Positions 1,781 through 49,908 of a stretch of DNA of 64,000 bases are shown here, piece by piece. Origin of the DNA: Girardia tigrina (Eukaryota); assembly GCA_001938485.1 (NCBI GenBank), contig MQRK01255162.1, positions 1-64,000 of the forward strand. The letters run 5' to 3'. The number at the start of each line of letters is the position of its first letter. Within the stretch, counting starts at the first letter, position 1. A model generated the notes under the pieces. That model was not told the DNA's origin. It did no database searches and worked only from the letters and a program-made list of their open reading frames with translations. The position numbers were made by a program, and so were the translations under genes.

Positions 1781-4339
1781 ATTATTTTTGATATTATTAA
1801 TCAAAATAAAATTTTGTTTAGTAATTTCGTTATTTTTTTCTAAATTCATTTCATTAATTAAATTGCTGTTTTTTCAATTTTCCATCGATAATAAATTTAA
1901 TTTATCAAAATTAAATCCGATCCCCCGGGAAGATTCATGTGCACGATGACACGTGCATGATCTCTGATTCCGTACGCGGCCCAGGTGAGATGTGGTCGAA
2001 GTGGCTTTACGGCACACTCAAGTCAGAAACCGGTACGGAATATTTTAGGAAGTGACGCATTTGCGTCATTTATTCGCGCCTCAAGGGCGACCGTCATCGT
2101 CGAGCTACAAGAGCCCCTTAAAATGTAATTTTGATCACTCTTCGACCGGAATGACAGCGAGTAATGTCGTCTGTTGCTTGATGCGGTCGGTTGGAGTGAT
2201 GGCGTTTTACTGCGGGCAAGATTATAGTTGATGGGGACAAGAATCGGGCAACAGCAGCACCAAAAAAGAATTTAAATTGTATATTAGAAAAAAATATTAA
2301 CATGTTAGTATATAAATTATTTAGTGGTGATTTAGAATATAAATTATTATTATTTGCGACATGAAATTTTAAAACTGAAAGAATCAGACTTACATCAATC
2401 GGTGCCGCATGACCGGTCACCGAGCACGGCTGGATCCATTCGGCTTCCGTCAGGCGCTTGAGAGTTTGATGTACATCTGACACCATTCGTCTTCCATATT
2501 GAGAATTTTGAGTTGAGTGCTGGATTAAATTGAAAGTCAAAGAAAAAAACCCAAAAATGATTCAGTTAAACAGTTTATTTCCCGAGAACAATTTTTCAAT
2601 GGCGACTTTGGATAATATACAAATGTTTAATATAAACTCGAGCCAATTATTAAAAATTAATTCGTATAAACAAAGTTCGATTTTTTGTTATTTTTATAAA
2701 ATCATAATATAGTTTTTTTGATAATTCAAAATTTTATTTAATTGTTTTAATTTTTTTTAATGCGCATCTGAATTTTTCACTTTTAAAAATTTCAGAGGTC
2801 GCAAATCCAATTAAGAAATTTTTTTCAAAATTAAAAATCAAAAAATTTAATTACATATTACCTGATAAAAAAACTCTTAATTGGTTGCTGCTGATGATCC
2901 GATTTAGTGGACACTACAATTATTATTTACAAAATGTTATCTTTAAGTTTTACCGAATATATTTACACGTTCATCGGTTCTCTAAATCTTGATTCACCCC
3001 AATGTTTAAAACACCACTCAACGCTCATAATCATTCAGTTCACCTTTCAGATATTTCCTAATAGGTTGCAACTCTCTCCACGAAATCACTCCTCATTTAC
3101 TTTGGGATGTTTTCCATCGGAATTTTTCTAATCGAAATCATCAATTCTTGCATTGAGTACCACCATTTGTTCCAACATTCCGATTATATCATCATTGAGT
3201 TCAACTTCTGAATTTAGATGAACTACTTGTGAATTTAGTAAAACTTCGTCTTTTGTTAATGATTCGTTCGCTTTTTCGAGATGGTTTATACTGTCCGATA
3301 TTAAATTAATGATAATCATTTGAAGTATTCACATGATGCTCTAACCCTCCTGGTGTGAGAGGATACCTTATATCCGATACAAATATAAGGGCAAGACAAA
3401 TGCCAACCCGGTTATCTAGTTGAAAGGTTACCGCACGATATACCTCCTAATACGGTGACAACTCAAGGGACTGAAATTACTAGCCTTCAAAAAAACTGAT
3501 TTCACCCTCCATCCAAGCAGCAGATGAGATAAGCGAGGACAGTTGCTGCAGATTATTTTCCTCTGGAACCCAGATCGATATTATCGGTTGGGTCTGGTTG
3601 GTCTCTGTCGTCGTCTATTCGGTTCGAATTTCTGGGTCCTTCGATATCGCCCGGGTCTTGTCAGGATTGGATTGTCGGTGAGATAATTCTGTTGCAGCTG
3701 ATATTTCTGAGTAGTGCCGAAGCACCGCGGATTTTTTGCTTCTGACACCTTTGTTATTTTCGGGAACGTGGCTCCATTGTTTCGGGTTCCAACCAGAGCG
3801 AAAGAGTTCTGGAATGTTGGGGGGCGAAGGGACGTTCTACATCACATAAAAGTTACCGCATTTTAATGACTTTTGGATACTATTGTTTGGGCCGTCATCT
3901 TACCCGCAAGTAAGCTCGGTGAACCATTTTTTGTACAAAAACTAGACATTAGAAATTGGTCAAAGTGCATTAAACTGGAGCTGGCAAAAAGTGTCTGGGC
4001 TTAACTTTTAGCGCGTCAACTTTTTAAAGCAATGGCGGGTCTTATCTGGAAAAGATTTCAGTATTATGTAAACGTTACCGGCATTCAATGGCGTTACTAA
4101 GAAATACGTCGAGCCGCCATCTAACCTTGTCGTAACTACGTGCCGCAGTCCAGCGGTATATCCACCCCAGAAATGGTGATGCAGGAGCGGGCGCAGCGGT
4201 TTTGTGGATTCTGTGCGCCGGCGGTCGGGAGCGAACGTCAGGTCGGGGGAACAAATAAAAATTTTAAATCTCACGTGTGTCAACCGGATTCGCACAAACC
4301 AGGTGCAAGAAAATGTCTCGCATTCTTTGAACTTCTAAT

Positions 4340-4828
4340 TCTTACTTGATCCGTTCTTCTCGTATTCTTTGAAATTCCTCGTACTTTTCTTCAATTTCCT
4401 CCTTCTGTTGCAATCTCTGTACCTCGTTCGAATAATTTAGCTGTTCACCCATTCACCAATTCATCGAATCTCTCCATCAAAACATCGAACTCCTTTTCAT
4501 ATTGATTACTGCTCCTTCTCGAATCTGGATCAGTCTTGAGCTCCTCTAAAGCTTGATTTCTGAAGCTCGTCAAGACCCTTTTTCAATTCGACTTTTTTCT
4601 TTCCCTCTTTCCATTGTTGTTTCTGATGGATCTTGACAATTTCTTCTTTCTCTTCACTCCATCCTCTCAATCTTAAAAAGAGATTGGTCATCCATCAGCT
4701 GCTTTCCATCAAATATAATACGCTGTTGAATCGGTGGAATGCTTTCCTTGCTCCGAATCTTCTACTTGACGTCCTCAACAGTGTCGTTGGAATTCACAAC
4801 ACTCCTGGCGCCGACGGGGGAAACCCAA
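4340..4828 (-). pseudogene. Ubiquitin-like domain fragment followed by an E/K-rich coiled-coil remnant
   Basis: Minus-strand translation of about 4797-4678 gives [39 protein letters not shown], matching ubiquitin 17-56 ([40 protein letters not shown]) without gaps. One TAG; no LRGG tail. Confidence 0.85.
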
Positions 4829-5349
4829 TTAATTAATTTATTTTTTATTTCTTTTAAACATACATATGTATAATCCACACCATTCAACAAACAAAACATT
4901 CGTGCTCATAAAATTCTCCATCAGTGGGAGGACATTTATGAAAATAATATCAAACCCACGATTCCGGATTCCATCTGCCGTCACCAGAGCGCTGCAACCA
5001 CGCGAAGAACAGTGATATTGGTAAAAAACAGAGAAAAAGAAAACAATCGTTCAAAATCCATATTTATTTATTTAGCTCTATCACATTAAATATTTACACA
5101 GTTAAAATTTTGTAATACGAAAGAACGATTTTTTTAGTTTATTCAAACAATTATTTTGTGCGACCTTTTTTCTAATTAATTTTGGTTGTTCTCTTGTTTT
5201 CGGTTCATCTTCTTTTTTCTTCGATTTTAATTTTATAATTAATGATAAAGTTTTATTATTGAAAATAAAAAAATATTTATCGATAAAAAATGGATGGAAA
5301 AAAATTGATTAAAATTAAAATTTGTTAATATTACTTCAATAATTATTTT

Positions 5350-5700
5350 TCTTTAATGAAGTTCGACATAGACAGCATTTGTTGCGCAAGACACGAATCG
5401 ACCGCAAGTATACACAAAAGTTTTTTATGCCTTGATATGGCTGAAACATTCACACAGTTAAGCTTTGAAGTCAGTCATCTTTACGATTTATTCTTTGTTA
5501 GGAAAACTCGCAATCACAGCACACTTGTTGTTTTTAAGGTGATTTGAGTTGGTGAGTTAAGTATTTTATAGGCTCGTGATCTTTTGTGATACTGCAGGGT
5601 TTAACACGATGTGAGCGTTTTAACGTTCATTTTATTAAATTTTGTTTGTTGAAGAGTAAGCTATTTAATCAAAAAATATTTCAAGGGAAAGCAGGTAAGT
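5350..5700 (-). mobile_element. Possible heavily decayed BEL/Pao integrase remnant
   Basis: KTFVYTCGRFVSCATNAVYVELH resembles the BEL integrase motif FxCxxTxAVHLEL; many stops. Confidence 0.3.
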
Positions 5701-6499
5701 AAAAACAAGTGAAATGTGTAATAATAGCACATCCACCTCAAGAAGATTTAAATCGTACAAAATTCGCTATTTTCCATTAATTATAAATAGAACTTATAAT
5801 ATTGTAATTATCCCCGATACAGTCCCCATATACATGAAATAAGTAAAAAGACTACCATGTCTTTAAATAAAATATAATCCACGTGACCACGGATTCGATG
5901 GCAGATATTCTGTCTCTGGTTCTGTTTTGAATTTTCGGTTTCGCAATAATTCTGCCTTTTGGCTATATTATTTTATAATGGTTTCTTTCAAAAAAATTTT
6001 TCTATTCCGTATAATTTAGTTTCGAAAATTTTTTAAGCGGTAAGTATTAATTTATCTTTAACACAGTTGATCGGGTCATTGCTGACACCAATGACATTAA
6101 GCTGTATCGTTGTCGTGTGACTCAAAGATGATTAAAACACGTAGTCGATCGAATTAATTTATTGCTATCAAAAATAAATAATTTTAATAAAGAAATACAA
6201 TAATTTTCCTATTAAATCCATATAATGCAATATCCATTTTAATCCAATAACCAATTTATCAAACTTAGGTGAATGATAAATCCGTTATTTTAGCGTTTAA
6301 GTAGGGTGCTCAGCTAACGAAAACGTTCGATTTGTTGAACCTAGTAGTAAATTAATAGTGAAACATTGTATAAACTGTATTTATCACAAACAATCACTAA
6401 CAATGATTACTAAGGAAAAGATAAATTCAAAAGTTACGGCGATTTGACGGAAAATTGCATTTAGTTTGAATCTCACCTAAGACGTGTGTTTAAATTAAA

Positions 6500-6780
6500 T
6501 TAAATTTCCTGTGGCCAGGTTGAATTGATAACGAATTCAATATGATTAACATACACAATCCTATTTAAACCAGCAGGAATATGAGGACTACTGAACAGTA
6601 CACGCATTGTGCACCCCAAACGGCAATGTACGACATTTAGAGCCTTGCCGACACCCCATTCAGCAATGTGAAAGTCATCCAAAACAAATCCATTGTACGG
6701 AAACTTAGCATTACCAAGCTTATGTAACTCTTACTTTTACGGTGATCAAAGCTAAGTAACCGAATAAATACTTACCGTCG
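6500..6780 (-). pseudogene. SF3 helicase fragment resembling a CRESS DNA virus Rep (candidate endogenous viral element)
   Basis: ELHKLGNAKFPYNGFVLDDFHIAEWGVGKALNVVHCRLGCTMRVLFSSPHIPAGLNRIVYVN has a Walker B (hhhDD) and IPAG..RI...N motif C at Rep-like spacing. Walker A and HUH motifs not found. Confidence 0.6.
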
Positions 6781-7868
6781 TGAATGCCGCCTTGTGATCG
6801 GTGTACTGTTCGTAGGGGAGGGAAAATTGAAAGTTCCTGACCCGTCTAGTTGCGTCACATCTAACTTATACCGTAGTAAACATTGGTAAACACTACGTAC
6901 TTTAGTAAGACCTTTAGTGCTCTTCCTTGGATGATCCTTCCAATCGAGATCCTTACTGTATCACAGTGATAATAACAAATTCTCCGGACTTTCCATATTT
7001 ACATAGGCCTACTGAATCGATGCCAAGCAATTCAGTATCTGCATGTCGTATACTGTTACCAACTTTCTCTCAGGCTCCAATCTAAGTGTGCATATATCAT
7101 ACTATCACAATGAGGCAGAAACACAACTCTTATACAGGAAAACCCACGGAGGGACCTGTATTGCCGGATAAAAGAATGGCCGTTTCATCGTGATTCCCTG
7201 GAACAGGTGACTGTCAGCGGGTTTGTTTGTATGGCAATAACATCCGTAAATCCGCAAGAAATTTATTGCTGACAGACATGATGATAGAGCGTGCGTAGCG
7301 TGGCTGCAGCACATTGGTGCGAGTGGGAGGTTTTCAGTTCTAGAGGAATAAAAATTTAATTTTAATCTACTCTTGATTTTTACGAATTCCTTCAATTTTA
7401 ATTGATTGTTCGATTAAAAACAATGTTTACATTTAATTTCGCCAATACAATTTTAAATCCAGTGATCGATTTAAACAAACTCAACAATAATAAATCGATA
7501 GATTAAAAAATAATCACATCAAAATAATGTGTCCAAAATTAAAAAATCCAAGCAACAAATCATTATTAATTTTGTTTTTATTGTAACTTAATTTTTAAAA
7601 ATAAAAATTTTCAACTCAAGGTTTAGAAAAATAATAAAAAATATATTCTATCAAGTGAATAAATCATTAAAAAATCCAGTGGTATTTTTGCAATTCAATT
7701 GTTGATTTTCGTTTTGAACATCATTTTGAATTTTCTTTTCTTATTTTTTGTTTTTTTATTTTATAAATTCTCATCAAAACATTTACAATCAAAATCCAAA
7801 AACATATTCATCACCTCTGTGTTACACTAGGAGCAATTTTACACTATTGAAAATATGAACACTTTAAT

Positions 7869-8084
7869 TCAATGTTGCTGCAATTACCTCAACAAATTGA
7901 AAATGAAAAATTATGAAGGATTTCAAACCCAAATTCGACAGTGATACGTGGTGTACCCATTAAGTAAAAGATCAAAATAACAGGAGTATAATTACAACAT
8001 AGAAACACTAATCATATAAAGGTACTATTTCTACATTACTTCTAACGATCAATAAGTTCCAAGAAAGCATTTGTGTAGAAAATA
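7869..8084 (-). repeat. Diverged duplicate of 8593-8820 (mariner 3' end plus flank)
   Basis: Shared blocks ATGAAGGATTTCAAA.CCAAATTCGAC.GTGATAC.TGGTGTACCC and CGATCAATAAGTTCCAAGAAAGCATTT. Confidence 0.85.
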
Positions 8085-8299
8085 GAACAAACGTTTTTAT
8101 TACTAATTCACAATCAAAATTCAAATCGAATCAAAACAAAAAATTTATTATAATCAATGTCGACTCCAACCTAAATAAAAATCAGAAGACACTAAAAAAC
8201 GTTACCACTTTAGACGATGGTCATCAAATTCCTTGTCATAAATTTCACAAAATACCGAAAGCAAAAAAATAGCTCCAATAATATTGCTCACAAAATCAA

Positions 8300-8510
8300 T
8301 CAATAAGAAAAATTTGAAAGTGGTCACACAAGTACCGCGTCTCGATCTTCAACACGGCTAACATTGCCACGATCCGGCCGGACTTGATCTTTTCGTTGAA
8401 CATATTCTGCATGAACCCCTCGCATACGAAGGCGTGAGTGAGGCTTGCGTAATTGTCGTGTGACTCCGATTTGCATTTTTTCTCAAACTGCTAACTTCTA
8501 GTATTTCTTT
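8300..8510 (-). pseudogene. Bcl-2 family fragment (BH3-like helix through BH1-like motif)
   Basis: EILEVS(frameshift)QFEKKCKSESHDNYASLTHAFVCEGFMQNMFNEKIKSGRIVAMLAVL aligns in register with Bcl-xL LREAGDEFELRYRRAFSDLTSQL...[24 protein letters not shown]. Confidence 0.6.
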
Positions 8511-8671
8511 CCGTTTATGTGGATGACTTTTTGATTGGCGGTTTTCATCACCTTATCTTACAGTTCGAGCACATCATTGTATTTCTCTCGAATTCAATAT
8601 GGCCGCAATTAGCTCAACAAATCGAAACTGAAAAATAATGAAGGATTTCAAATCCAAATTCGACTGTGATA

Positions 8672-8912
8672 CATGGTGTACCCGGATTAAGTAAAAAGCA
8701 AAATATCAGGAACCTCATATTAAAACATAGGAATGCTAATCATATTAAAGGTACAACCTAAGACCCTTCACTTTATCCAGCGATCAATAAGTTCCAAGAA
8801 AGCATTTTTTGTAGAAAATTGGTAGCTTCAAGAAATCCTCCACGCACTGACGCAGATCGTTAGAATTTTCAAACTTTCGCCTCTCAAATATCTCTTCATG
8901 TTACTAAATAGG
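8672..8912 (-). mobile_element. Mariner-family transposon 3' remnant with TIR
   Basis: Frameshifted LFSNMKRYLRG/KFENSNDLRQCVEDFLK/FYKKCFLELIDRWIK is the mariner C-terminus. Terminus TA|CATGGTGTACCCGGATTAAG at 8670. Confidence 0.75.
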
Positions 8913-9963
8913 TAAAAAAACACTTGGTGCTAGATCCGGAATGTTTAGAAGGTGATCCAGCAACACATCCACTTTTCGAAATTGTTTTCATTGTTTCGGA
9001 ACTTTTGTTGAAGTGGTTCAGTAACTGGATAATGATGTACAAGACGAATAAATAATCTGTGATTTTTTGTTAAGGTGTTTCAAGTAACTGGATAGTTTGG
9101 AAAAAATAGTTTGAATAAATTTGAAAATGTATAATAATGAAAATTATTAAAAAAATATCAAACGACATCATCCTTGTAATTTGAATGATATTTGCATTTT
9201 CCTCAAATTCGATAGTCATGTAGCAACTTTTTTCAACTTGATCGGCTAGATTCTGATGTCCGCCGATTCTTCTATAACAATTTGTCCGGAATAACGGAGT
9301 TCAAATCTACTAACATATACTTGAGTTCAGGAACCAGATACTGATGTTCAAAGTGTTAGATGTATCTGGGGTTGAATTTTATACCACTCTCTGGCGATAT
9401 CTAACAAAGGACTTATCAATTATTGATATTAAATAAGAGTTTTCAACTTAATTTAATTTGATCAATTAACTTAATCAAATTGATATTTAATAAATCTAAC
9501 TTAAATCAGAAGACAATGTACTTTTAGTATAATAATATTTTAAATCTATAACAATTACAAAATATTTTCTTTATACAATGAAATTACAACAGAATGTTAG
9601 ATTAAATATGTGAAACCCCCTACTTATTACCTATTTACGATGAAGGACTGGTTCTCGTCCAGAGCCTTTATAATTTTAAAAGGAAACGGTTACCCGGTTA
9701 ATAAAATGTTAAAATAAAAATGATTTATTAATAATAAAAATAAAGATTTTATTAATATTTAATTTACTAATATAGATAAAAATTAAGATTTTAATAAAAA
9801 AATCGAATAAGAACCTGGATCATTTTATCTTCCTTGTATAATCAAATCCTAATCCGGTTTCTCCGCAATAAAACAATTCAAAACTCGGGCGTTCCTTTTT
9901 GGCCGCTATAGATTGTAGAAAAACAAACACCTAAATTACAAAATATATTACAAATTAAAACTA

Positions 9964-11436
9964 TACTACTGGACAAAATATTTGCAATTACATTTTCGTG
10001 CATTTTTAAAAGTTTTAGGTAAATTAGTTCTTTTTTAAACTAAAGTCAACCTATTGATGTATTATAATATACATTGACACATTTGTTTGTTTTAATAGTT
10101 TATTAGAATTTGTGTATTTTTGTAATGTTTTTTTGGCCACATTTTTGCACTCATTTAATTTTTTTATTAGTAATAAAAATAAAACTAAGTAACATTTATT
10201 ATCGCAATAATGTACCATCATTCTTTAATAATAGACACATTTTCTTTAAAATGTATATATAAGTTTGATAAAATACCAAACTCTTCATCATTGATTTTAT
10301 CCACTTCATGACAAATTCCAGACCATAGTGACTCTTTGCCATCAAATTGTGGACCATTATATAATCTCTGCTTAATAATACTCCAGACTTTCTCTGTAGG
10401 AGATAAGTCAGGGCTATGATCTGGCCAGGGTAATATGTCTACTTTTTCAGCAGTAAGCATCTCAATGGTTTTCTTGCTTGTGTGCGCATGCGCGTTGTCT
10501 TGTTGGAATAAAAATGAATCTATTTCATTCTTTAGCAACGGAAATATGTCGTCCTTCAACATATCACAATAGGAATTAGAATTAATGGTGCCTTCAACTC
10601 TTCTAACAAGCAATGGTCCATCACGACTAATGCAACCCAAAATCATTATCGAGCCACCATCAAACGGTCGTCTTGCACGCTGTGTGTTATTATCTTTGCT
10701 CCATGACATAAAGTTATCGTTGCCGTCGAGAGAAAAGCGGCACTCATCAGAAAAAACAACTTTGTCAAAATCGACATTTTCAATAATCCATGACCGCGCT
10801 ATTTCTACTCTTTTGGCCTTCTGATTGTCTGACAATTGTATCCTTTGACATCTACGATAACTCAATCCCATTGAACACATACGCCTTCGTATTGTGCGGG
10901 TGGACACATTGTTGGACAATATATTGCCAATTGCCACTGATGTCACTTTTTTATGACCCTTTTCTAAAGACACTATAGCTTTTTTAATTTCATTGTTTAT
11001 TTTATATTTCTTAGAGGATGAATTCCTTGGTGGATTAAAACCTCTTGCACCACTTGCGACACTATAAATCGTCCTCAGGCTAACATTTAGGGTCTCAACT
11101 ATGACCTTTTTGGAGGTTCCTTTCAATAAATAATTTTTAATTATATCAATTTTTTCAACGCTTAGCGTCATTCTAAATATCTAAAAATAATATATCTATC
11201 AAAATAACATTAAATAATTAATTACAAAACATAATATAGTAATGCAAAAATGTGGCCAAAAAACATTACAAAAATACGCAAATTCATTATTATTTATTGA
11301 ACTATTAAAACAAACAAATGTGTCAATATATATTATAATACATCAATAGGTTGACTTTAGTTTAAAAAAGAATTAGTTTACCTAAAACTTTTAAAAATGC
11401 ACCAAAATGTAATTGCAAATATTTTGTCCAGTAGTA
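9964..11436 (-). mobile_element. Tc1-family DNA transposon, full length (~1.47 kb), ~190-bp TIRs, TA target duplication
   Basis: TACTACTGGACAAAATATTTGCAATTAC... (9964-10149) is the inverse of 11243-11436. TA at 9962-63 and 11437-38 (exact end ambiguous by 2 bp). Confidence 0.95.
10218..11171 (-). CDS. Tc1-like DD34E transposase (317 aa; probable frameshift near the C-terminus)
   Basis: N-terminal HTH, VFSDE, FQQDNA, and WPDHSPDLSPTE with 34 residues between the second D and E. Confidence 0.92.
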   Translation of the reverse strand: MTLSVEKIDIIKNYLLKGTSKKVIVETLNVSLRTIYSVASGARGFNPPRNSSSKKYKINNEIKKAIVSLEKGHKKVTSVAIGNILSNNVSTRTIRRRMCSMGLSYRRCQRIQLSDNQKAKRVEIARSWIIENVDFDKVVFSDECRFSLDGNDNFMSWSKDNNTQRARRPFDGGSIMILGCISRDGPLLVRRVEGTINSNSYCDMLKDDIFPLLKNEIDSFLFQQDNAHAHTSKKTIEMLTAEKVDILPWPDHSPDLSPTEKVWSIIKQRLYNGPQFDGKESLWSGICHEVDKINDEEFGILSNLYIHFKENVSIIKE

Positions 11437-12229
11437 TATTATAACATTCGGTGTATTTAAACAACCGAATTATCATTCATCATATATATATATATATATA
11501 TATCATAATCTACGATTAGATTATCATATTTTTAATCCATATTATCGTAATTAAAAAAAATATCATTGGATTAATTTACAAAAGGCCCACTGTTTATCAC
11601 AATATCTAGCAAGTTTTACAAGAATAATGGCTGACAAATTATCCTACAATCATATTTGAAAAATCAAAATTCTTTAAACTTACATATAACGGATATCGCC
11701 AAGTAGTATCACTGATACTATTTAAATAGAATCACTAAATTTTTTTAAGTTGTTGATATTATTTGGGTCATGAAACTATTTGGTGCTTTCAATTTCCATT
11801 AACAAAAATATCAAAATATGAATAAAAAAATAAAACAATTTATTACAAAAGGCCTTAAATTCAAACTGCCAATTAGAAATGGCCACTAATCAAAAAAATA
11901 TTTTACAAATATTTTAACAAAAATATATATTCGTTTAATAACAAAATAATCAATTAATAATAAATTCACACACCAATTTAATAATATTCAAAGGCTAATG
12001 CACGGTGTGAACTAATTAATTAATTCGTTAACGATATTTTCGGCCCATTCGAGATAGTTGAACAGCTCCTTAGTTATAACATTGTCGAAGACTCAATAAT
12101 ACTTTATTCATTAACGACATCCAAACATTCTACATAATCATTATCATCTAAGCAGTCTACATCCTGATCATCTACATCTTCCCCGGAAATAGACTCGTAA
12201 GGAAATTGTTCAATCTAGTTTGAAACAAC

Positions 12230-12490
12230 CCAAGCCTAGCAAAACTTTATACCATACACATCAGGCTTTGCTATTTGCCAATCGTCATGGTTCGAACTAA
12301 ATCTTGATGATATTATTGAGTTTTGTATGGTTTCGGTTTTCAATCATTCAAAGAATCTCCGACCCATGAATTAATCAATTCCTTCGATGGTGGTTTTGGA
12401 TTACCATTTTTGGTATAAACAACAAAATCAGAGTTCTTCCATTCATTAATACGAAAATATATCAAATCTTTCATGGAACGAAAATTCCTA
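12230..12490 (-). mobile_element. pogo/Tigger-like transposase C-terminal remnant
   Basis: NFRSMKDLIYFRINEWKNSDFVVYTKNGNPKPPSKELINSWVGDSL matches the pogo DDE_1 C-terminal pattern. Confidence 0.7.
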
Positions 12491-12499
12491 TCTCCTTGT

Positions 12500-12790
12500 G
12501 GATAGATAGATAGTTCCGTTCTTTTCATGACCGGTTTTGCAACATGAGGTCTTGTATTGTCTTGTCTTGTAGTCAACTCTTGTCGTTTAGTGATACTTCT
12601 CTGTTCAGATTGATTAACTTCATTCCATAACGAGTCGCAACACCTTTATGGATATTATGCTTGGGAGTCATCTTTTGCACCTTTCTGTCAAGATTGATTG
12701 TCTTTCCATGATCTCTATCGTTTTGTATTATCGAAATAAATATACTTTTCATCACCAGTGATAATTCGAGACATGCATGACTTTCGATGT
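12500..12790 (-). mobile_element. Mariner transposase internal remnant
   Basis: SRIITGDEKYIYFDNTKR*RSW, PKHNIH and QDNTRPHVAKPV correspond to mariner TGDEKW and HDNARPH motifs. Confidence 0.85.
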
Positions 12791-13975
12791 TTGCTAGGGC
12801 TGAATTTCAAAAAAGGAAACCGGTACATAAAAAGTTTTTGTATAAACAAACAATGTAATAATTTAATATTTTTATATAAAAAATATAATTAAATAAATTT
12901 TAAAATATTAATCAAAAATACAAATAAAAAGAAGATATACATTTTCTTTTAAATAAATTTATTTTTGAATTTAGATTAAAAAACAGTGCTAATCACTTAT
13001 CTCTATTTGTTTCTTAAACTGATCTTCCATGATAGTGTCCGACATATCGTTATTCACAAAAGAATCTGTCTAATATCTAACAATTTTTAACACTTTTATA
13101 TAAATCTATCTTTTATATAAACAACAGAGATGTATGAATGCGATATGCTAAAAATAAAACTATCATTTCTATCTTATTTTTTTTATTAACGTCGATGTGG
13201 CGACGATTGAATGTATCGATTGAGCGACAACTCGACATGCAGTCGAAATACCTCGGATCCGTCGATAAACGTCGATTCGATCGGACGAGATAGCGGCCTG
13301 CAATTTACATTACAAACACCATCACATACATATAAAAGCGTTGTTTTTTAACCGGTTCTTGTTCCGTTGCGTTCAAGAGAACTACATTATTGCCCGGGAG
13401 CATGTGTCTCAATCTATTCACCTCCATAACTCGCCACTCATCAACATCACGAGACACAACCCATTAATCAGAAAGATTTTAATATAATTCGATATCAATT
13501 CAAAAAAGACGTTTTTACTGAGAACTTTATTTTAAATTTTCTTTTTTAAATTGTGTAGAAAATAAGAAAATAACATTATAGTAATTCAAATTTTCTATTT
13601 TTATTGTTGAAAAATTAGATTTTTTTACCATAAAAACCTGTGAGACAATTTTTATCAATAACCCACACAAATTTCCAATTACATTAATTTATTTTCATGG
13701 GTTTCAATAAATTGATGGCAGTTTCAGGGACATCGGATTCATCGTCCATCCTGCCGTAGTCGCTATCGTCATTTTTTTGACCAGTCATATCACTAAATAC
13801 GTGTAAATTTAGAATATGAAGTAATGAATTAGAGGTTTGTTAGTCACTTTGACTTTAAAGTTACATTTTTTGCGTTTAATTTATTTTGCATTATAATATT
13901 AAATTTTAACTTTCACAGAATTAGTAAATAAAAGCATGTCATATAATTTTAACGTATACGTTATAAGAACTAAAC

Positions 13976-15337: not shown

Positions 15338-17716
15338 ATCGTTAAAATTTGTGCTTTACTATACAGCATTTTCTCCCAGCAAATTTTTAGCTTTCTTATC
15401 CCATATCTTTTTTTGAAACAGGTATATTACTCAACATTTTCTATGAACGTAGAAGCGTTTTCTTGATCTTGTTGAACGACCAACATTATACATTTACGAC
15501 ATTTCGTAATTGCGGCACCTCATTTCGTATTTGCTACATTTCCTTTGGTAATTACAACATTTCATTTAATAATTACGACACATTATTTTGGAGATTCTGA
15601 GTGACAGGATTAATTGTACTGGGCTCTTTTTGTATTGAGTTAATTCAAGCACAGCATCTAAAATTTAATATTTCGAGCGATTCAAATTTTAATACTGATA
15701 ATAAGAAATTATAAAATTTAAACCGTTTTGAAAAAGCGATGTCAATGGTGTCGTTTTGAGAGACGCGTCAGTCGGTTGTAAATTGGCGTTCAAGAGGACG
15801 ATCTGAAAAGAAGTTCGATGGTAATGATTGGCGACAGTTAATTGCGATTTGTGGAAAATATATGCGATTTAGTTGTTAAAAAAATGAAAGAAACGAAAAT
15901 GAAAGCTCGAAAACAAATACTGAGATCTTTAAATTGAAATCAAAATCAGATCAAATAGCAGAATTTAAGTGAGTTGTTTTCAAAATATTTTAAAATTGTT
16001 TCATCAATTGTGTCAACAATAATTAAATAATTCGTCTAATAAAATTAATAAAAATTATCGTTTCGTCACGAAATAACAGATAATTTAAATTGTTATATAA
16101 ATTGAACTATAAATTAATTCGGATTACAACATTTAACTTAACTTACTCCTACTTGTATCTAAATTATTATTTAATTAGAATTAGAATTAGAATTAGATAC
16201 GATAATTATAATTAGAACTATTGAAGAGCTGGTAACTTAACTTACTCCATAAAATTTATATCCATAAAATTTAAAATTTTGAAATCCACTCAAGAACACG
16301 GACAACCGGCCGTGAATAAACTGAAAGACGTGCTAGTTCGGTATATGGTTTACTTGTCGTAGATGGCATTATAGCGATAATTTGGAGGCAATAATCTTAT
16401 CGTTTTCGAAAAAGGGATATGAGGCCCCATATAAAACCCAGGAGGAGCGGCCTTAATAAAATTACTTAAATTTTAATATGTGAATAAATTGAATTACCGG
16501 TAGTTGTGGGGTTTGCCGTCTCCCGAGTTCCTTCAGGGTTAAGCATGGTAAGCCCTTCAGCGACAGACGAACACGCCAATACCTTAGCAGAGAATTCGTC
16601 CGACTGATTAAGTGATTTTCTTTCTTAGATAAGAATGTGCATTCCGTTAGGAACGCGGGTATCCGTTTTAGTATTTTACGTAATGCATTAATATGTTGCG
16701 ATAGAATCAAAATTCAATAAAAACATATAATTTAACATATAAAATTTAAGCATGATTAAAACAAAATAATCGAAAAGATCGCAAAACACACAAAGTTAGA
16801 GAATTCACATAAAATATAAGAATTACAATAAATAAATAACAAATAAGCGCCAAAATATATGCAAAATGATGCAAAAAACATAAATATCGATAGAAAGATG
16901 AATAGTTACGAGTCAGTAATCGATAAAACCGGAATAACGAACGGAATCAAACAGGAAAAAAAATCCGACAAAATTATTATAAAATCCAGAATAAGTTTAC
17001 GAGTAAAACGAAACAAGAAATGTAAAAACCCGTTTGGAATTGACAGAGAAATAGCTAAATTGAAATAAAAATAGTAAATAATAAATCAATAAATAACGAT
17101 TAATGAACGGATTACGTTGAAATAAACAAATAAAAAAGTCGGAAAAATCATCAAAATACCCACAGATAATAAAAGATAATAATCGTATCGAAAAACGAGC
17201 AAAATAGCAAATAAATACAAAAATAGAACAAATTGATACATCGCCAAATAAAGAAGTAACGATGAAAACCTCACAAAATAAAGACGGAAAATTCATAAAA
17301 TAATCGGAAAAATCGCAGAAAAATCAACAAGATACGAAAACATCGCAATCAACACTAATTGACCAAGATTTCGAAAGAAAATAATTAAAAAATAACATAA
17401 TTCTAATTTATTTTATTCCGGCGATCAAAAACGCAAATATGAATGAAAATCGATAGATAAAAGCAGAAAAAATCGTAAAAATTATGACAAAAATTATGCG
17501 ATAGAAAACATGAAAAAATACGCTACGAAAAGAAACATAAAAATCAATTAAATCGAAAATCATCTAAAATAATAGATGTTCAAGTGAACAATGAGTCCTG
17601 TATTATGCGGACGCCACTAAAACAGATCCAAATCGATTTAGAGGAGGCTGCAAAAACTCAATAATGACAAATATTCATGAAATCCGCAAAAAAATATAAA
17701 TCGAAAATATTTAACC

Positions 17717-48451: not shown

Positions 48452-49377
48452 TAGAATATGTTGAATATTCAATTGCTTATGTCGGCACAAATACAAAAAC
48501 AACAATCCAACTTATTCTATCAACTATTTAGATGCAAACAGAACATCGTCCGATCGCTGACATTCAATTTCGACAGATCTATAAATAAATGGCCATTGAT
48601 TGGCCAGTCTAAAAATATATCGGCTTCGGGATTGGTCGGTCTTCAAGATGTGGTTGCCATGGGCATCAGAATCAATAAATTCAATGACGACTTGTTCCAC
48701 CTCTGGTTATTCCAGCTCACTAATTGTGCCATCAAAGATCAGATGATCGAATGGAACTCGATTGATTTTGAATCATAAATTTATTATAATTGATTGTTTT
48801 ACTGTTTTTAGAATTTTCGATGTTTGTGGTTAACTTAATTTTTAGCAGTATTTGACATTGTACCCCTTCACTGAAAACGGACTATTGGTAAATATTATTT
48901 TGATTTCTCAGTGACTATTTCAAAAAAAACGTTTAATCGTGTTGATTATATTTGCCGAAGGACTGTATATATTTCAATGAATCGTTTGTTATAAATTTAA
49001 TCGATATTTGTTGCGTCATCATTGTATAATCGATTCGTGTTCTTGTTCAAATAATGTAATTTCTTGGATTTCGAAATGTGAAAGAAAAACACCAAATCAG
49101 TTTGGAGACTGAATCAGTGATCGAGATCAATTTAACGAAATTCCTTTCATCGACAACAAAATTCGGCTATCTATAAATAAACGACCCATGATTGGCCAAT
49201 CTGGGAATAACTCGAACATTTTTTCATAATGATTTTCTAGAAAATATGTTGTGATATTCGATTGTTTAAATCGTTTAATTTAGAAAATAAAAATATTGCA
49301 CGAAAAAGTTTTTTTGATTTAATTGAAAAAAAGGCCATTTTTTTTAAAAAGTCGGTGTTTTAAATTGAAAGAAACAA

Positions 49378-49908
49378 ATGTTCGCCGACGAATATCGATT
49401 GAAAATCGAATCGGAATTAAATTCGATTTGTAACGACGTTTTAAAATTACTGATCGATTATCTCATTCCATTGGCCACGAAAAGTGGACAACCGGAAAGT
49501 GAAGTGTTCCTTTTGAAAATGCAAGGCGATTATTATCGGTGTTTGGTGGAAGTGGCATCGAGCCAAAACAAGTCCGATATCGTGAAAAACAGTCTCAATG
49601 CGTATTTGAATGCGACATCAAGCGCATCGAAACTCCACATGACTCATCCAATTCGGTTGGGATTGGCTTTAAATTTTTCCGTATTCTATTACGAAATCAA
49701 AAACAATCGGCCGGAAGCTTGTAAACTGGCTAAAACGGCATTTGATGACGCGATCACCGATATCGATCATTTGCAAGAAGATTCGTACAAAGACAGTACT
49801 CTGATTATGCGATTGTTGAGAGAAAATCTCGATTTAATTGTGGTGGGAGTTAATCCGAGAATGACGTCGGTATTTTTCGGTCACCGTTATGCCGGGATCG
49901 GGAATTAA
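49378..49908 (+). pseudogene. 14-3-3 protein fragment (N-terminally truncated; homology ends about 49830)
   Basis: [64 protein letters not shown]; first ~75 aa absent. Confidence 0.9.

Follow-up and report, generated by a model that had tools for sequence, protein, structure and literature searches.

The stretch of DNA analysed here (the window) comprises 64,000 nucleotides of the contig MQRK01255162.1 from Girardia tigrina. Its minus strand carries, at 6435–7272, the remnant of a replication initiator gene (Rep) overlapped by a second viral ORF, both with counterparts in PEVE, a DNA virus-like element of the same planarian. The features of this locus and its surroundings are as follows.

4349..13042, no strand assigned: host segment shared block-wise with contig C239091 at 83–88% identity, with the viral piece in both
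6246..6418, no strand assigned: interspersed host repeat that borders the viral piece on its 3′ side, found in nine places at 79–86% identity (L004–L012)
6435..6449, minus: final recognisable Rep codons, RQIAV (RRIVV in PEVE), from the arginine-finger region, in another frame and read by eye
6450..6505, no strand assigned: high-copy short host repeat inside the 3′ end of Rep, seen as an alignment gap and with many 90% matches in the genome
6506..6742, minus: SF3 helicase piece with Walker B and motif C, identical to PEVE Rep 178–252 at 50 of 75 residues
6743..6750, minus: deletion junction, placed by the PEVE alignment to about 10 nt and also present in C239091
6751..6775, minus: what is left, at the 5′ end, of a putative spliceosomal intron, with the donor GTAAGT at 6775–6770
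6776..6877, minus: terminal part of the Rep 5′ exon including HUH motif I (tblastn, 47% over 34 aa)
6781..7272, minus: decayed homolog of ORF-X (tblastn to residues 49–257, 38% identity, E 1.5e-26; also tblastx blocks)
7279..7406, no strand assigned: high-copy host repeat that borders the viral piece on its 5′ side (depth 7,100–10,300 in bin 7280–7353)

The helicase piece, which starts with an in-frame stop on its 5′ side, includes a stop-free stretch of 76 codons (6503–6730, minus strand), which carries both Walker B (YNGFVLDDF, 6697–6671) and motif C (IPAGLNRIVYVN, 6580–6545), each aligned with the family. Both motifs had been proposed in an earlier note made from the sequence alone and prove to be real, as the 76-residue peptide shares 67% identity with PEVE Rep over 75 aa, with a local score of 283 against a mean of 27 and a maximum of 49 among 1000 shuffles. 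In a library of 1.84 billion proteins the peptide has two hits, of which the best is PEVE Rep (E 1.6e-27) and the second (P0002) was rejected by eye as an unrelated repeat protein. The check proposed in that note, an SF3/Rep profile search, returns no Pfam family at E≤1 for the peptide despite its E value to PEVE Rep, and therefore a refutation test of this kind, taken literally, would mislead. Two neighbouring frames likewise match nothing in Pfam, and PEVE Rep itself gives sub-threshold matches only (Viral_Rep, E 0.03). A word-based homolog search with the peptide, aimed at longer proteins, yielded none among six candidates.

In the frame shared with the Walker B piece lies NFQFSLP (6835–6815), which corresponds to HUH motif I; its counterpart in PEVE is NFQLSIP, and the motif is also found in other genome copies. 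The statement that HUH motifs are absent from this locus is thus incorrect. The protein-like frame previously followed to about 7080 does have homology behind it, but this extends to 7272 and belongs mostly to another, overlapping ORF, ORF-X, which denotes the 265-codon ORF of PEVE (PEVE 3252–4049) located upstream of the Rep start and overlapping it. The window homolog contains stops and frameshifts and is about 135 nt shorter than that of PEVE. Four colinear tblastx blocks place window 7272–6781 on PEVE 3396–4022 and window 6736–6506 on PEVE 4651–4881, with a DNA identity of 63–70% in the best blocks and 85% in one 41-nt stretch. In the PEVE Rep region, no genome copy exceeds about 81% over long stretches (all 24 candidates scored).

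The donor GTAAGT lies at the site of a 56-nt GT..AG insertion in PEVE (4028–4083) and of a longer one in copy C212272, and the C212272 insertion and the intron remnant of the window have a short word in common. Relatives that lack the intron continue colinearly past this point after motif I. In PEVE (L067:4028–4083) the same 56 nt lie between motif I and the 272-aa Rep of the annotation; since two intronless relatives (L028 and L107) run colinear across this stretch, the database protein likely lacks its first exon bearing motif I. About 25 nt after the donor, the window jumps to just past Walker A. The matched blocks end at PEVE 4030 and resume at 4651, about 590 nt of PEVE sequence being missing at the junction, and with it the intron acceptor, HUH motifs II and III, the oligomerisation region and Walker A have been lost. 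A tblastn search of the whole window with PEVE Rep residues 1–172 finds no match at 6435–7272. The supposed deletion of Walker A near 6780 therefore stands, but the loss is far larger than was thought. HUH motifs II and III, not found at the locus, are yet kept in PEVE and other copies, as is Walker A (GKSGIGKT). The deletion was also considered as a splice product, which is ruled out because the donor and the start of the intron are still present.

The surroundings of the viral piece are chromosomal, with a Tc1-type transposase, retroelement pieces and a 14-3-3 frame in the window. The transposase (10218–11180, minus strand) is of Tc1/mariner type with an open frame of 320 codons (DDE_3, E 9e-18), and a 93% copy of it is located elsewhere within the C239091 segment. 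The 14-3-3 frame (49369–49908, plus strand; 179 codons, E 3e-58) is intronless over profile positions 69–221 and may be an exon or a retrocopy. The short repeat inside Rep reaches a depth of 51,000–73,000 (bin 6466–6539), appears as a 55-nt skip in the public run X2 and is missing from C239091; loose contig ends occur at the 5′ boundary repeat at 7279. No viral terminal inverted repeat has a match anywhere in the window, which also contains no capsid-like gene and no NS1-like helicase. Near the 3′ end of the viral piece, neither a poly-A remnant nor a run of at least 8 T is present.

Among 41 DNA matches in the assembly, three span the whole viral stretch, namely the window itself, a contig identical to it and C239091 (87%), and C239091 has the same deletion junction plus kilobases of common flank. 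The counterpart of 4349–13042 in C239091 is either a duplicate or a deeply diverged allele. Contigs of all three runs (X1 and X2 from one study, X3 from another) bridge the deletion junction without differences, where X1 or X2 may be the source of the assembly itself, and contigs of X1 and X2 cross the virus–host boundary near 7279 and contain both variants. These observations bear on the possibility that episomal viral reads and host DNA were joined into an assembly chimera. The assembly is fragmented into short contigs (255,254 in number), and PEVE is called extrachromosomal in the title of Rebrikov 2002, as quoted in reference lists; however, the stops, the frameshifts, the internal host repeat and the existence of a second copy that has diverged between the same flanks all oppose a chimera, and the public-run contigs crossing both the deletion and the boundary near 7279 largely refute it, making this the most improbable of the explanations considered, with next to no weight. 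The features found at the locus, that is, host flanks, a second copy, bridging contigs and a neutral pattern of change, are those of an endogenous viral element.

Alternatively, instead of arriving in a one-off capture of viral DNA, the fragment could have been spread by a PIVE-like transposable element, either carried as its cargo or as one of its non-autonomous derivatives. Repeats border the viral piece on both sides, related elements in this genome occur with inverted repeats and in arrays, and, according to PMC3198968, Repbase has an entry for PIVE, a virus-like element integrated in Schmidtea. However, the three matches that cover the whole stretch share kilobases of flank, which fits duplication of a host segment, and the window has no viral ITR, leaving transposon cargo quite unlikely. 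The two bounding repeats were also considered as the ends of one transposon, which is ruled out, as they do not match each other.

The differences between the two host copies are spread evenly over codon positions (8/7/10 in 73 helicase codons, with 5 silent and 17 replacement codons), as in neutral decay, in contrast to those between the window and PEVE (21/11/53 in 77 codons). Where PEVE and C212272 agree, the window has 29 GC-to-AT changes and 11 in the reverse direction. The p-distance between the window and C239091 is 0.090 in the insert and 0.055–0.060 in the flanks; this larger divergence counts against a tidy neutral picture and may be explained by GC-to-AT drift.

One contig of run X1 matches just the 41 nt at window 7006–7047, and its loose ends translate like PEVE; the depth of this bin is 1244 in X1 as compared with 130–200 in adjacent bins. 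This hints at a high-copy PEVE-like sequence in run X1.

In insects, there are piRNAs derived from endogenous viral elements. A dead gene might similarly be kept in the planarian as a source of piRNAs silencing PEVE-like viruses, as many such relics are present in the genome, the high depth of PEVE-like sequence in X1 means that the target may still circulate, and planarians possess PIWI pathways (10.1101/551184). Against this, a DNA identity to PEVE of 63–70%, with only 41 nt at 85%, is too low for most guides, and the insert is not more conserved than its flanks, so that retention as a piRNA source is improbable, if a little less so than transposon cargo.

The genome contains many relatives of this fragment, with 53 matches to the peptide, 158 to PEVE Rep and 43 to the capsid-like ORF of PEVE, which are matches including redundant contigs and not copy numbers. 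A tree of 47 rows and 75 columns (39 distinct sequences of 103 local hits plus 8 database proteins, leaving out duplicates and hits covering fewer than 58 residues) joins the window and C239091 copies as sisters (100/85) within the PEVE Rep clade (98/97), and 18 of its 44 inner branches are unresolved. The family is an HUH-SF3 Rep, as identified by profile, Atlas and a model searched with Foldseek. Its profile, which gathers only 6 proteins from 4662 candidates, matches PCV2 Rep (E 1.4e-4, a match of the family and not of the fragment), and its first Atlas hits are Cressdnaviricota Reps (0.97, likewise for the family). The model of the family (pLDDT 74) retrieves CRESS Reps (E 1e-21 to 1e-16) from a viral library, and in the PDB an MCM helicase (E 1.5e-5) followed by PCV2 Rep (1.8e-5). 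A sequence search of the PDB with protein P0004 alone gives no real match. The family resembles Cressdnaviricota Reps such as PCV2 Rep (PDB 7LAR and 8XMS) in its order of HUH nuclease, oligomerisation region and SF3 helicase, but is only about 20% identical to PCV2 Rep, and its source genome differs in having terminal inverted repeats and parvovirus-type companions.

The large segment of PEVE (L067) is 5699 nt long with terminal inverted repeats of 243 nt. In other lineages, the neighbours of Rep within the inverted repeats are a PLA2 ORF, a capsid-like ORF and a helicase of the Parvo_NS1-like kind; the NS1-like helicase and PLA2 of these relatives score above the cut-off, but the initiator is a separate CRESS-type Rep, while Parvoviridae are marked by a single NS1 with both HUH nuclease and SF3 helicase. 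The capsid-like ORF has an Atlas lead to capsid (0.96, with low recognition), a model of pLDDT 26 and, by profile against the PDB, a match to VP2 only (E 0.21). Given the terminal repeats of PEVE and the NS1-like and PLA2 genes of its relatives, the label CRESS-DNA virus therefore fits the gene and not the genome; judged by gene content, the source virus departs from the typical circular CRESS virus, a hallmark of which is a nonanucleotide origin in a stem-loop, and is a chimera of CRESS-type Rep and parvovirus-like parts that bears terminal inverted repeats. Descent from an ordinary CRESS-DNA virus with a circular genome, unrelated to the genome plan of PEVE, would account for the CRESS-like features and fold of Rep and for the distant relatives P0007–P0009, which reside on contigs of 2.3–3.3 kb, a size typical of CRESS genomes. 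This is already contradicted by the colinear match of ORF-X, an upstream ORF specific to PEVE, and further by the nesting of the window Rep with PEVE, the shared intron position and the terminal inverted repeats of PEVE, and is accordingly very unlikely.

The earlier reading of the locus as a fossil of an ssDNA virus of the host lineage is thus upheld as to an endogenous CRESS-type Rep fragment, nearest to PEVE Rep, and needs revision as to the kind of virus and the anatomy, in which the second ORF and the intron donor had been missed. The window copy and PEVE share colinear ORF-X, motif I, intron donor, Walker B and motif C and a common clade; unlike PEVE, the window copy is integrated, deleted and decayed, without ITRs or other genes at the locus. 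The locus is very probably an endogenous viral element made of about 840 bp of PEVE-type ORF-X and Rep, which a large deletion, an inserted repeat, frameshifts and stops have disrupted and which likely no longer functions. It likely records a past infection, as one of many such relics.

The chromosome would have captured unspliced viral DNA and not reverse-transcribed mRNA, because the intron donor is kept and poly-A is absent. Break repair and the Rep nuclease, indistinguishable here, are both conceivable routes, with a chromosome break as the most likely. The deletion presumably preceded the duplication of the flanking segment or the divergence of the alleles, after which both copies may have drifted neutrally toward the AT content of the host. 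The fragment is predicted to be incapable of nicking DNA and hydrolysing ATP, because motifs II and III and Walker A are gone, of unwinding, and of mobilisation, because terminal repeats are absent. HUH-SF3 Reps are established as nicking and unwinding enzymes of rolling replication; by analogy, the intact Rep of the source virus would nick and unwind its genome for rolling-hairpin or rolling-circle replication.

Taken alone, the locus is an unremarkable dead endogenous viral element, and the wider family is the more interesting lead. The fragment can tentatively, with somewhat less than even confidence, be placed in an extensive fossil record left by an unclassified family of flatworm viruses, whose inverted repeats would enclose a CRESS-type Rep, an NS1-like helicase of parvovirus type that is separate from it, and a PLA2/parvovirus-like capsid. 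The genome would have been entered repeatedly by several lineages, some copies, with long open frames and identical repeats, would perhaps be active or feed an episomal PEVE pool, and spliceosomal introns of Rep would have been gained independently at at least 4 positions. More than 100 Rep matches from several lineages could serve to date and classify a little-studied group of chimeric ssDNA viruses of a model animal group, and offer material on intron gain in a viral gene.

PMC3198968 (2011) states that PEVE of G. tigrina was not found integrated in the host genome, contrary to the present finding that PEVE-clade sequence does integrate. It also presents PIVE of Schmidtea mediterranea (Repbase) as an integrated relative of PEVE, described through its NS1-like protein; PIVE is thus, by description only, comparable to the window copy as a PEVE relative integrated in a planarian. 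The preprint of Buck et al. 2024 (PMC11071296), with its Parvo3071 group, uParvo3093 and uParvo9664, reports parvovirus-like genomes in which NS1 is accompanied by an auxiliary CRESS Rep, and its supplement gives, by name only, at least endogenised Girardia and flatworm elements. The Rep motifs printed there resemble those of the window family by eye only, and the text covered gives no account of PEVE-clade copies, introns or the window locus. In the accessible parts of PMC6186406, PMC10269781, PMC9241645, PMC7958881 and 10.1101/551184, PEVE is only cited or is untreated. The openly accessible literature yielded no account of Rep copies of the PEVE clade integrated in a genome, or of their introns.

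Rep lineages in the genome carry GT..AG insertions at three further positions (L027/L028/L033, L056/L101/L103/L125 and L060), comprising 42 nt between Walker A and B, about 55–60 nt after motif II, and 53 nt after Walker B, the last (L060) read by eye. L039 possibly has another insertion after motif I, and the splicing of all these introns is a prediction. An insertion-free Rep of 366 codons is encoded by L057 (C248302:500–8000), with an NS1-like helicase on the same strand and a PLA2 ORF on the opposite strand; in the tree, this lineage groups with the database Reps P0003 and P0007–P0009. A separate Rep fragment is present in the window itself (16532–16672, minus strand), 10 kb from the first and covering a region just past motif III. 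It shares 60% identity with L028 (47 aa, E 1.6e-12) as against 47–49% with PEVE, and thus belongs to another lineage.

The element at C234283:18000–24030 (L125 and L126) contains a capsid-like ORF, a PLA2 ORF, Rep and an NS1-like helicase between inverted repeats, which are 100% identical over 216 + 27 nt; its flanks have no matches among the compared loci, and its host junctions are putative. The element at C242413:4290–13500 (L101 and L122) comprises an NS1-like gene, three tandem Reps, and PLA2 and capsid-like ORFs, and is split into two units by three inverted repeats of 277–299 nt. L054 (C250892), which is putatively integrated, is a contig of 10 kb consisting largely of rearranged PEVE pieces and copies of the terminal repeat (up to 94–97% over 65–80 nt); its Rep is 91% identical with 2 stops. 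Contigs C243127, C198715 and C176067 hold alternating NS1-like and Rep pieces in arrays of 10–20 kb, which look like clusters of repeated integration or concatemers. Finally, L133 and L134 are decayed cox1-like pieces on nuclear contigs and, taken with the PEVE link, suggest a planarian flatworm as host, since they are best read, by the conserved cox1 motifs, with AAA as Asn and ATA as Ile (table 9, the flatworm/echinoderm mitochondrial code).
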